Below, piece by piece: positions 41,474 through 43,816 of a stretch of 64,000 nucleotides of DNA (position 1 is the stretch's first letter; each line of letters opens with the position of its first letter). The DNA lies in NCBI GenBank assembly GCA_000165345.1, contig CM000434.1, positions 768,001 to 832,000 of the forward strand. The letters run 5' to 3'. The notes under the pieces were generated by a model. That model was given only the letters and a program-made list of their open reading frames with translations. It was not told the origin of the DNA and searched no databases. The position numbers and the translations under genes are program-made.

Positions 41474-43816
41474 TTAGTTTCCTGACACATTTTGGTCTTG
41501 AAACTGAGTAGTAGTTTGAGCCTTTAGTTGATCTTGTACTTTAGACTTTGAATCCGATTGAGTCACTGTCCTTTGAGAATCTGTTGTTACACCTTGGGCA
41601 CTGTTATTAGTAGTGGTAGTAGTAGAGGTATTAGTAGCAGTTTTAGTGGTAGTTGTACCAGTATTAGCACCAGTAGTAGTGGTAGTAGCAGTGGTAGCAC
41701 CAGTATTAGCAGTAGTAGTAGAAGTATAGCTTGAATCAATTTGTGCCATATACTCTTCTTTGTATGTAACCTTTGAATCTTTGTCTGTGGTTACAATAGT
41801 GACTGTTGCTGTTCTTGTAGTTTCTCCAGTTTTTGTGCCAGTTGTAACATTCTTTAATGATAAATCACTAACATATCCTGAAATATCCATGCAGGCATTA
41901 ACATTAGTAGATGAATCGGTAGTGGTAGTTTTATTAGTTTGAGTAGTGGTAGCTTGACCAGCAGTAGCTTGACCAGCAGTAGCTTGGCCAGTAGCAACTT
42001 GGCCGGTAGTAGTTTGACCAGTAGTAGCTTGAAAAGTGGTAGCTTGGCTGGCGGTACTTTGAGAAGCAGTAGTTTGGGAAGCAGTAGATTGAGAAGTAAT
42101 AGTTTGAGAAGTAGTAGTTTGAGAAGTGGTAGCTTGACCGGCAGTAGTTTGAGTAGTGAAAGTAGAAGGAACAGTAGTAGTAGTAGTCATCCTACTACAA
42201 TCTTGGAAAACTTGATCAACAGTAGTAACTGTTGATCCATCAGCTTTAGTGACAAAAGTTTCTGTTCTTGTAGTTACACCATCTACATTACCTGATGCAA
42301 ATCTTGTGGTTGTTTTTGTAACAGTTTCACCTGATTGAGTATTTGTTGAAACTGTCTGGTCAAATGTTTCTTCAGTCTTTGATGTCTGCTTTCCATCAAC
42401 AGAATAAGTTTCTCTTGTAACAGTTCCTTTGTAACTTTTTTCTGTAGTTCCAGTTTGTACAGGAGTAGTACTAGTAGTAGTAACACACTTTGTTCTGTCA
42501 GTATTTGTTTGTTCCTTCTTTGAAGTATAAGTACCATCAGTTTGGTAAGTTTCAGTAATTTTGATTTGTGTCTTTCCACTCTGAGTTGTTTCATATTTTA
42601 CACCACATTTACCATAAGTTGTTTGACTAGGTGTTTGAACTGCTCCATAGTAAACCTGAGCACCGTTGAAATCTTGATCAGCCTGCTGATTGTTCTGTTC
42701 AGTTTGTTTTTGTTTTTGTAATTGTTTTCTTGCTTGGTCTTGGCCTTGAATGGATGTTTCATATCCTGCACCTCTCATTGTTTCCTGGCATTTTGTCTGT
42801 TTACTATTGACTCCAGAATAACCATTATTTGCCACAGATGTGTCAGTTGTTTCTTTTGATACTTCAATATCTATTTGTCTAGAGGTAATTGAACCATTGC
42901 TAAATGTTTCAGTCATTGTTGTAGTAGTTTCAGTTTTTGTTGGTGCTTGATAAACAAAAGTCATTGTATTATCTGTTGTATCAAAGTAACAAACCTGACT
43001 TGTAACTGCTTCAGACTGAGCAGTTCCTGCTTTACAAGTGGTAGCAGAAGCAGTCATATTTGATGTACTTTTTTTGGCACTTTCACTAGAAGGTTTCACT
43101 TCTTGGGTAGTAACAGTCTTTGTAGTTTTTACTTTCATTGTTGTACTTGTTACATCTTCAGTACTAGTCTTATTAACAGTCTTTTGAATTTTCATACCAG
43201 AATCGAAAACCGTTTCTGTATTTACTGTTGAAGTGTTAGTTACTGTATTATTCTCACCTTGTTTTTGAGTACCTGTTGTTGCAGTTTTCTTAAATGTAGT
43301 AGTAGTAGTAGTAGCACCAGTTGTGAAACCAGAAGTATCAGTAGTACCAGTAGTGCCAGTAGTACCAGTAGTAGTGGTAGTGGTGGTAGTATTAGTATCA
43401 GTAGTGGTACCAGTAGCACCAGTAGTGGTAGTGGTGGTAGTAGTAGTAGTACCAGTAGTGCCAGTAGCACCAGTAGCACCAGTAGCACCAGTAGTAGTTC
43501 TGGTAGTAGTTCCAGTAGTGTTAGTAGAGCCAGTAACACCAGCAGCACCAGTAGTAGTGGTCTCTGGAGCTGTAAAAGTAACCTTACTGTAAGATTTAAT
43601 GCTACCAGAAACTGAAACTGAAGATGCAGAATCACACACTCCTGTTGTAGTTGTAGTTGTAGTCGTAGTTGTAACGTCACCAGATGTTTCAGTACAGACC
43701 TTCTTTGATTGTTCTTCCTTTGCTACGTCAGAAGGACGCTTCTTAGTTTGTTCGCTTGTCATATTTGTTTCGCAGTTGGTTTTATATTGATTTGGTGATG
43801 AATTTTCTACTTCCAT
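41474..43816 (-). CDS. Thr-rich mucin-like repeat protein (780 aa)
   Basis: About 40% Thr with poly-T runs (TTTTTTTTTT), tandem (T/A)(S/G)Q(A/T)T pentapeptide repeats and TGA/TGT tripeptide-type repeats. This resembles Cryptosporidium mucin-like glycoproteins. No N-terminal signal peptide in the ORF as found. Confidence 0.7.
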   Translation of the reverse strand: MEVENSSPNQYKTNCETNMTSEQTKKRPSDVAKEEQSKKVCTETSGDVTTTTTTTTTTGVCDSASSVSVSGSIKSYSKVTFTAPETTTTGAAGVTGSTNTTGTTTRTTTGATGATGATGTTGTTTTTTTTTTGATGTTTDTNTTTTTTTTGTTGTTGTTDTSGFTTGATTTTTTFKKTATTGTQKQGENNTVTNTSTVNTETVFDSGMKIQKTVNKTSTEDVTSTTMKVKTTKTVTTQEVKPSSESAKKSTSNMTASATTCKAGTAQSEAVTSQVCYFDTTDNTMTFVYQAPTKTETTTTMTETFSNGSITSRQIDIEVSKETTDTSVANNGYSGVNSKQTKCQETMRGAGYETSIQGQDQARKQLQKQKQTEQNNQQADQDFNGAQVYYGAVQTPSQTTYGKCGVKYETTQSGKTQIKITETYQTDGTYTSKKEQTNTDRTKCVTTTSTTPVQTGTTEKSYKGTVTRETYSVDGKQTSKTEETFDQTVSTNTQSGETVTKTTTRFASGNVDGVTTRTETFVTKADGSTVTTVDQVFQDCSRMTTTTTVPSTFTTQTTAGQATTSQTTTSQTITSQSTASQTTASQSTASQATTFQATTGQTTTGQVATGQATAGQATAGQATTTQTNKTTTTDSSTNVNACMDISGYVSDLSLKNVTTGTKTGETTRTATVTIVTTDKDSKVTYKEEYMAQIDSSYTSTTTANTGATTATTTTTGANTGTTTTKTATNTSTTTTTNNSAQGVTTDSQRTVTQSDSKSKVQDQLKAQTTTQFQDQNVSGN
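41946..42165. repeat. Imperfect 15-nt tandem array of about 14 copies (agtagcttgaccagc-like) inside the mucin-like CDS
   Basis: It encodes the (T/A)(S/G)Q(A/T)T pentapeptide repeats. The antisense-strand S-rich ORF 41939-42235 is an artefact of the same repeats. Confidence 0.8.
43296..43545. repeat. 9-nt (ccagtagya) / 3-nt (agt/ggt) periodic repeat block inside the mucin-like CDS
   Basis: It encodes TGATGATGA.../TTTTTT tracts. It also generates the spurious antisense ORFs 43259-43615 and 43323-43592. Confidence 0.8.

Follow-up and report, generated by a model that had tools for sequence, protein, structure and literature searches.

Does a threonine-rich open reading frame (ORF) of Cryptosporidium with internal minisatellites encode a gp60-type surface antigen, a secreted mucin whose signal-peptide exon has been overlooked, or something else? 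This question is raised by an ORF on the minus strand of a 64,000-nucleotide stretch of the assembly GCA_000165345.1 (contig CM000434.1, positions 768,001 to 832,000; hereafter the window, to which all coordinates refer), which a sequence-only reading had described as a mucin-like, Thr-rich gene with two internal minisatellites, no evident signal peptide and about 1 kb of non-coding DNA downstream. The ORF, at 41474-43816, is cgd6_3460 on chromosome 6 of Cryptosporidium parvum. It is probably a single-exon gene, confined to Cryptosporidium in our searches, that encodes a non-secreted protein made in abundance by the female gamete (macrogamont), with Thr/Gly/Ala/Gln spacers that expand by slippage.

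The identity of the gene was established by primer mapping. The quantitative PCR primers published for cgd6_3460 (Mauzy 2012, PMC3305300, supplement) map within the ORF, at 42000-41979 (-) and 41886-41907 (+), and the primers for cgd6_3440, 3450, 3470, 3480 and 3490 fall on the flanking genes in order. The ORF is intact from ATG to stop and encodes 780 amino acids, beginning MEVENSSPNQYKTN. The protein contains 32.1% Thr, 9.4% Ser, 8% Gln and 7% Gly but only 10 Cys, has a grand average of hydropathy (GRAVY) of -0.84 and carries dense Ser/Thr tracts fit for clustered O-glycosylation (array 1 is 60% Thr). Three neighbouring ORFs encode proteins identical to those of C. parvum, and the gene order of the window is shared by public assemblies, in which the protein is annotated with 780, 799 or 804 amino acids. 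In Tandel et al. 2019, the entry for cgd6_3460 reads 'Uncharacterized protein', and we found no mention of the gene or its neighbours, also not as a typing marker, in open-access full texts, supplements and paywalled papers lying outside this search. cgd6_3460 is an annotated but unstudied gene.

The expression of the gene points to the female. In the published time course (Mauzy 2012), the transcript was at ~0 at 2-6 h, at 1e-8 to 1e-5 at 12-36 h and at 3e-5 to 3e-4 at 48-72 h, with a rise of at least 100-fold at 48-72 h. For sorted parasites (Tandel et al. 2019, Supplementary File 2), log2 counts per million (CPM) of 2.5 (0.7-4.5) were reported in asexual stages, compared to 14.56 (14.3-14.7) in females from culture (in vitro) and 13.85 (13.6-14.0) in those obtained in vivo. 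Females thus exceed asexual stages by a log2 fold change of +12.06, or ~4,000-fold, and a log2 CPM of 14.56 corresponds to ~2.4% of the parasite reads in females. With a transcript at ~0 at 2-6 h and a log2 CPM of 2.5 in asexual stages versus 14.6 in females, no expression typical of the invasive stages (sporozoite, merozoite) was found, and the profile is not that of an invasion-stage surface antigen.

In order to be a classical mucin, the protein would have to enter the secretory pathway, and the sequence-only reading had left two options, a signal-peptide exon missing upstream or a protein that is not a classical mucin. Its description of the N-terminus as hydrophilic was correct: the best 9-residue mean of Kyte-Doolittle (KD) hydropathy in the first 60 residues is 0.71. 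The best 19-residue mean of the whole protein is 0.50, and the C-terminal 20 residues average -1.48. Since the 19-residue maximum is this low and both termini are hydrophilic, KD hydropathy over all 780 residues gave no signal peptide, transmembrane segment or glycosylphosphatidylinositol (GPI) signal. The missing exon fares badly in the comparison of species. In a further ten species (C. hominis, C. meleagridis, C. tyzzeri, C. ubiquitum, C. canis, C. felis, C. ryanae, C. bovis, C. xiaoi and C. serpentis), conservation sets in precisely at Met1; the in-frame sequence upstream of Met1 contains stops or is unrelated between species. The only signal-like candidate, a mini-ORF MWIKCCLYITSVLLVNSDI with its ATG at 44313, was rejected because of its frameshifts in C. 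tyzzeri and C. meleagridis. In the N-terminal module, M1, E4, N5, S7, N9, Q10, K26-R27-P28-S29-D30, Q36, K38, K39 and C41 are invariant in the eight aligned species, including the gastric C. serpentis. The oldest and most constrained part of the protein is its hydrophilic N-terminus, which is a strong argument against a missing signal-peptide exon and makes such an exon very unlikely. The second option is thus favoured, signal peptide and anchor both being missing and the expression not being that of an invasive stage. The KR-X10-KK spacing of the N-terminal module resembles a bipartite nuclear localisation signal, albeit weaker than the consensus; we infer this resemblance from the sequence.

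The gene appears to be restricted to Cryptosporidium in our searches. A word-indexed search yielded the orthologues of C. felis, C. ryanae, C. bovis and C. xiaoi, and retrieval by synteny added C. ubiquitum (856 amino acids), C. canis (676 amino acids) and C. serpentis (264 amino acids); in C. bovis, C. felis, C. ubiquitum, C. canis and C. serpentis, the orthologue lies between the gene for the 243-amino-acid protein and Ebp2. The protein gave no match in Pfam, NCBIfam or the PDB sequence profiles, and its non-repeat core gave none in the word-indexed search. A profile of the core run against 1.84 billion representative proteins recovered Cryptosporidium sequences plus a single archaeal protein with PKD repeats, which we dismissed as a chance match of one generic hairpin, matched nine times. 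The syntenic protein of C. serpentis has only the N-terminal 45 residues in common with the others (blastp 50% identity, E 5e-7) and contains 7.5% Thr. Since it keeps the N-terminal module only, there has been either a gain of the beta-hairpin core and Thr arrays in the intestinal lineage or a loss of both in the gastric lineage. This protein (positions 5809-6603 of the retrieved locus L021) is rich in Ser, Asn and Lys and lacks both the core and the Thr arrays.

Between the low-complexity tracts lies a conserved core, comprising residues 200-545, with hairpin-like motifs of the type T-E-T-Y/F-x-x-D-G-x-x-T-x-K-x-E, some of them repeated (e.g. TETYxxDGxxTxKKEQT and TRETYSVDGKQTSKTEETF), and a Gln-rich linker (residues 357-377) that is predicted to be helical. 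AlphaFold2, run on a five-sequence alignment, predicted long antiparallel hairpins in residues 290-325 and 410-550 with predicted local distance difference test (pLDDT) scores of 70-88, and disordered termini. A Foldseek comparison with the PDB returned only TonB-dependent and LptD beta-barrels at a template modelling (TM) score of ~0.2 and root mean square deviations of 12-14 Å; we took this for a generic beta-meander and rejected homology. A regular expression for the hairpin gave 1-2 matches per orthologue versus ~0.03 in shuffled sequences; this pattern was devised after viewing the sequences and is not relied on. The ratio of nonsynonymous to synonymous substitution rates (dN/dS) was 0.41-0.53 for the gene, 0.37-0.58 for the core and 0.03-0.16 for neighbouring genes. 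Because the ratio for the gene is 0.41-0.53, it indicates relaxed purifying selection rather than a diversifying or positive one.

The two minisatellites of the sequence-only reading, an array of 15-nt units and one of 3/9-nt units, are real though degenerate, since their Tandem Repeats Finder (TRF) scores exceed the default threshold of 50; with the intact ORF and its Thr content, this part of the description stands. The 15-nt array, with bounds at 41935/41945 and 42138/42157 depending on the period, scored 129, 166 and 208 at periods 15, 30 and 45, respectively, with 12.9 copies and 78% matches at the shortest of these periods. The 5' array scored 76, 127, 198 and 206 at periods 9, 27, 54 and 60, respectively. 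Two further repeats had gone unnoticed, both of which differ between species in our alignments: a third Thr-rich array near the C-terminus shows interspecies length differences, and the T10 tract encoded by a hexamer run is two residues shorter in C. meleagridis and C. tyzzeri.

Length variation was assessed on 13 alleles from four species, retrieved via the neighbouring genes: the window itself plus four alleles of C. parvum, five of C. hominis, two of C. meleagridis and one of C. tyzzeri. The ORF was intact in all 13 and every length difference was a multiple of three, as expected from the claim that the arrays are in frame. C. parvum proteins have 780 (three alleles), 799 or 804 residues (coding sequences of 2343, 2400 and 2415 nt), and those of C. 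hominis 767 (three alleles), 770 or 773 residues (2304, 2313 and 2322 nt). Within these two species, all insertions and deletions were confined to the 5' array. In C. parvum, they comprise insertions of 60 nt near 43485 and, in one allele only, of 15 nt near 43448, as well as a 3-nt difference near 43314; in C. hominis, the alleles vary in 9-nt (TTG) steps. The 15-nt array, on the other hand, was identical in the five C. parvum alleles and of constant length in the five C. hominis alleles, with one substitution. It differs between these species by a loss of five and a gain of three residues in C. hominis, lacks ~57 residues in C. meleagridis and is absent from C. bovis, C. ryanae and C. xiaoi. 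The claim that both arrays are hypervariable VNTRs and could serve for subtyping thus holds in part: the 5' array varies in length within C. parvum and within C. hominis, whereas the 15-nt array is fixed in each of the species sampled and changes only from one species to another. Since its lengths vary among the assemblies of both species, the 5' array is a plausible typing locus, in what is a small sample.

The arrays also differ in position between more distant species. The orthologue of C. ubiquitum carries a 42-copy ACTGGTGCT array within the core, at a site without an array in C. parvum, and in C. bovis the Thr arrays are entirely absent. As the positions of the arrays are not conserved among C. 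ubiquitum, C. bovis and C. serpentis, the Thr arrays are recurrent, lineage-specific expansions in linker regions. The 9-nt unit ACTGGTGCT (Thr-Gly-Ala) is common to the 5' array of C. parvum and the array of C. ubiquitum (positions 4273-4652 of the retrieved locus L022) at different positions in the protein, which suggests intragenic relocation or an independent origin.

These results fit a protein built from an N-terminal module of ~45 residues found throughout the genus, a beta-hairpin-rich core with its Gln-rich linker and a conserved hydrophilic C-terminal tail, with low-complexity spacers in between. The spacers, rich in Thr, Gly, Ala and Gln, are encoded by degenerate tandem arrays of ACT-rich codons, which grow, shrink and originate afresh at sites that differ between lineages, probably driven by replication slippage or unequal exchange. 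Apparently only the reading frame and the hydrophilic composition of the arrays are constrained, which would explain why the length polymorphism is in frame. Lacking signal peptide, membrane span and GPI signal, the protein should remain in the cytosol or nucleus and would not receive the mucin-type O-linked N-acetylgalactosamine (O-GalNAc) of the Golgi. If the Thr tracts are glycosylated at all, a nucleocytosolic transferase of the SPY/OGT type would be the candidate enzyme. A SPINDLY-like gene, cgd1_1300, is annotated in C. parvum, the lectin AAL has been reported to stain sporozoite nuclei, and recombinant CpSPY shows OGT activity in vitro (reviewed in PMC6939170). Since C. parvum has such a transferase and its nuclei are stained by a fucose-binding lectin, cytosolic O-glycosylation of the Thr tracts is possible. 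The downstream 1.37 kb would be an ordinary spacer that holds the 3' untranslated region (3'UTR) of cgd6_3460 and the promoter of Ebp2.

The last point has to be weighed against a functional RNA element in 40456-41473, be it a long 3'UTR of cgd6_3460, e.g. for control of mRNA stability or translation in females, or an independent long non-coding RNA (lncRNA). The sequence-only reading had proposed both. Its finding that this region holds no ORF of 60 or more codons was reproduced on both strands; the real gap is longer than the ~1 kb that it gave, extending over 1,371 bp to the ATG of Ebp2 (cgd6_3450) at 40102 (~805,262-806,632 of CP029785.1), and must hold the 3'UTR of cgd6_3460 as well as the promoter and 5'UTR of Ebp2. 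In favour of a functional RNA, the gap keeps a length of 1.0-1.4 kb throughout the intestinal species examined, compared to 397 bp next to the short gene of C. serpentis; this retained length is the sole pointer to a role, for instance as a long 3'UTR. The extreme expression of cgd6_3460 and the newest annotation, which has 766 lncRNA genes and in which 88.6% of the genome contributes to genes, can be added on the same side. However, the identity of the spacer to C. hominis (95%) and C. meleagridis (86%) is like that of the 5' flank and other spacers and below that of neighbouring coding sequences, sliding windows showed no outstanding island, and no blocks are conserved to C. ubiquitum or C. 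canis. An Rfam scan of 38500-45300 gave two sub-threshold chance matches only. Gaps of at least 1 kb are, moreover, common in the window: of 23 crudely measured ORF-to-ORF gaps, 6 are this long, and some of these probably hold small genes. A single segment of the spacer has a match in C. felis (34 nt, 82% identity, E 0.001), namely the palindrome TGGCGCTCGCGCCA, which lies ~190-240 bp upstream of the Ebp2 ATG and which we take to be E2F-like from upstream motifs of Cryptosporidium; it is likely a promoter element of Ebp2 rather than of the Thr-rich gene. By its identity profile, the spacer evolves like ordinary intergenic DNA, and we consider a functional RNA possible but less likely. The lncRNAs CPATCC_0029013/0029043 and Cp_lnc_85/110 of Li et al. 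2021 have identifiers resembling locus tags of this region; their sequences lie outside the window and are uninformative either way. The least conserved segment of the gap is a (TA)n microsatellite at 40406-40452, with 37% identity to C. meleagridis in a 60-bp window.

Several observations weigh against a non-secreted female protein with slippage-prone spacers. Males were not sequenced by Tandel et al. 2019, and for this reason cgd6_3460 may be specific to sexual stages generally and not to females. Part of the length differences may be assembly artefacts, because two assemblies labelled TU502 disagree (767 versus 773 residues) and the older chromosome 6 record BX526834 encodes 799 residues compared to 780 in three other C. 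parvum sequences. The AlphaFold2 model is weak, with a mean pLDDT of 46.5. Finally, the absence of secretion is predicted from the amino acid sequence, a 2026 review places secreted mucins for the building of the oocyst wall in the late wave of female expression, and the protein may act in the wall via an unconventional route.

These last points lead to the alternative of a secreted, mucin-type glycoprotein that the macrogamont makes and that is destined for oocyst wall, glycocalyx or sporozoite tethers, entering the secretory pathway via an unrecognised or non-canonical signal. Such a protein would account for the Thr content with its dense Thr runs and for the very high, female-specific expression, it would join the late mucins just mentioned, and C. 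parvum has active polypeptide GalNAc-transferases. Nevertheless, the protein nowhere reaches the hydrophobicity of a signal peptide or membrane span, its hydrophilic N-terminus shows conservation from Met1 onwards throughout the genus, the C-terminus is hydrophilic too and no upstream exon is conserved. We therefore regard secretion as improbable.

We assign a similarly low probability to a more elaborate version of the non-secreted protein, in which it would act as a 'cytoplasmic mucin'. Here, a dominant protein of the macrogamont, with Thr arrays O-fucosylated or O-GlcNAcylated by SPY/OGT and targeted by the module resembling a nuclear localisation signal, would give rise to a hydrated gel or a perinuclear assembly, which the oocyst would inherit and which would aid its resilience or the development of the zygote.

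A gp60-like, hypervariable surface antigen with VNTRs kept by immune selection, and with it the proposed antigenic variation, is very improbable: the in-frame length polymorphism of the 5' array within two species and a dN/dS above that of neighbouring genes would suit it, but it is contradicted by the expression (no transcript at 2-6 h, near-background levels in sorted asexual stages, ~4,000-fold more in females), by the lack of signal peptide and anchor, by a dN/dS below 1 for the non-repeat core and the gene overall, and by the invariance of the 15-nt array within species.

Table 1 Features of the cgd6_3460 locus, listed from the 5' flank to the downstream neighbour.
Feature	Position	Strand	Basis and remarks
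5' flank of 612 bp, probably the promoter with the 5'UTR	43817-44428	minus	Motif scan, alignment, sliding identity
cgd6_3460 coding sequence, single exon; Thr-rich, Gly/Gln-rich, strongly hydrophilic	41474-43816	minus	ORF list, composition, primer mapping
N-terminal module, residues 1-45, MEVENSSPNQ ... K(K/R)RPSD ... (E/D)Q-KK-C	43682-43816	minus	Eight-species alignment
Short (GTTGTA)5 hexamer run encoding the T10 tract	43644-43673	minus	TRF, period 6, 5 copies
5' Thr/Gly/Ala array, units of the ACT-GGT-GCT type, higher-order unit ~54-60 nt	43296-43558	minus	TRF
Conserved non-repeat core	42182-43219	minus	Five-species alignments, AlphaFold2, dN/dS
15-nt array, pentapeptides x-T-T-S/G-Q	41935-42157	minus	TRF
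Third Thr-rich array near the C-terminus	41608-41727	minus	TRF, period 33, score 121
C-terminal tail ...QFQDQNVSGN, hydrophilic, no GPI-anchor signal	41477-41506	minus	Q, Q-N-V-S and N invariant in 5 divergent species
Spacer from the cgd6_3460 stop to the Ebp2 ATG	40103-41473	minus	ORF list, Rfam, identity
GC-rich, E2F-like palindrome, likely Ebp2 promoter element	40292-40340	minus	Position upstream of the Ebp2 ATG
Ebp2 (cgd6_3450), two exons, GTAAGT...TAG intron	39253-40102	minus	Pfam PF05890; reverse primer at 39854-39875

In the 5' flank, the proximal ~330 bp are conserved in patches within the C. parvum clade, with 92-97% identity to C. meleagridis in four of six 60-bp windows, and no block is conserved as far as C. 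ubiquitum or C. canis. The flank contains a pair of CATGCGCATG motifs at 44206-44241. We rejected these as a promoter signal particular to cgd6_3460, since clusters of this kind are also present in several of the other spacers of the window. Clusters of CATGCG/GCATGC hexamers were also seen at 15507-15528, 31249-31266 and 48811-48832, apparently in other spacers, and are consistent with a general promoter motif of Cryptosporidium. In C. hominis UdeA01, the promoter-region motif CATGCGCATGTGGATAATGCAAGTA shows a 25-bp tandem duplication (~44206-44250), resulting in three copies compared to two in the other sequences.

Among the neighbours, cgd6_3470 (44429-45160, minus strand) encodes the 243-amino-acid protein upstream, which starts with MGGKQS, a possible N-myristoylation site, and has a terminal Cys-rich CxC…CPIC motif. 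The cgd6_3470 transcript shows a sharp maximum at 12 h (Mauzy 2012, PMC3305300) and is ~6-fold lower in females than in asexual stages. The primers for cgd6_3510 map to an ORF of 199 amino acids (50446-51045, plus strand) without a Thr stretch or obvious signal peptide, and no other Thr-rich ORF was found in the 45-52 kb region of the window; the description attached to cgd6_3510 looks misattached. The 1,399-amino-acid ORF of cgd6_3520 (51697-55896, minus strand) contains several long poly-Asn tracts.

As a repeat-bearing, low-complexity ORF, cgd6_3460 is ordinary; it merits follow-up for its extreme, female-specific expression, its lack of a targeting signal and its genus-wide N-terminal module. 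A gene annotated only as an uncharacterised protein accounts for ~2.4% of the reads in the stage that builds the transmissible oocyst, and such a genus-restricted, abundant and signal-less Thr-rich protein is an obvious target for work on sexual development and oocyst formation. The 43296-43558 array is, in addition, a candidate marker for multilocus typing on chromosome 6, separate from gp60. The locus also calls for caution, composition alone being poor ground for calling Thr-rich ORFs of Cryptosporidium secreted mucins.

Compared with known systems, cgd6_3460 shares with gp60/GP40-GP15 (cgd6_1080), gp900 and Muc1-7 the Ser/Thr-rich, low-complexity tracts that derive from in-frame tandem repeats and vary in length between isolates, and with gp60 also the location on chromosome 6. 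These proteins, however, possess both a signal peptide and an anchor (GPI or membrane), are synthesised in invasive stages and carry O-GalNAc, whereas cgd6_3460 lacks both targeting signals, is silent early in infection and in asexual stages, and contains a conserved, non-repeat, beta-rich core. The substrates of the SPINDLY O-fucosyltransferase of Toxoplasma gondii (Bandini et al. 2016, reviewed in PMC6939170) are alike in combining Ser/Thr-rich, low-complexity tracts with the lack of a signal peptide. Most of them are conserved proteins of the nuclear pore, transcription and mRNA processing, in contrast to an orphan that makes up ~2% of the transcripts of one stage. With the Cryptosporidium oocyst wall proteins (COWPs) and the secreted mucins of late females, cgd6_3460 has in common a strong, female-specific transcription with an onset at ~42-48 h in culture; the COWPs are Cys-rich and have signal peptides, unlike the Thr-rich, Cys-poor product of cgd6_3460, which has none. 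Hydrophilins and LEA-type proteins, finally, are protectants of dormant stages. No sequence relationship to them was found (no Pfam match), and part of the cgd6_3460 protein is predicted to form ordered beta structure, but it resembles them in its negative GRAVY, its Gly content of more than 6%, its abundance and its synthesis by a cell that becomes an environmentally resistant spore.

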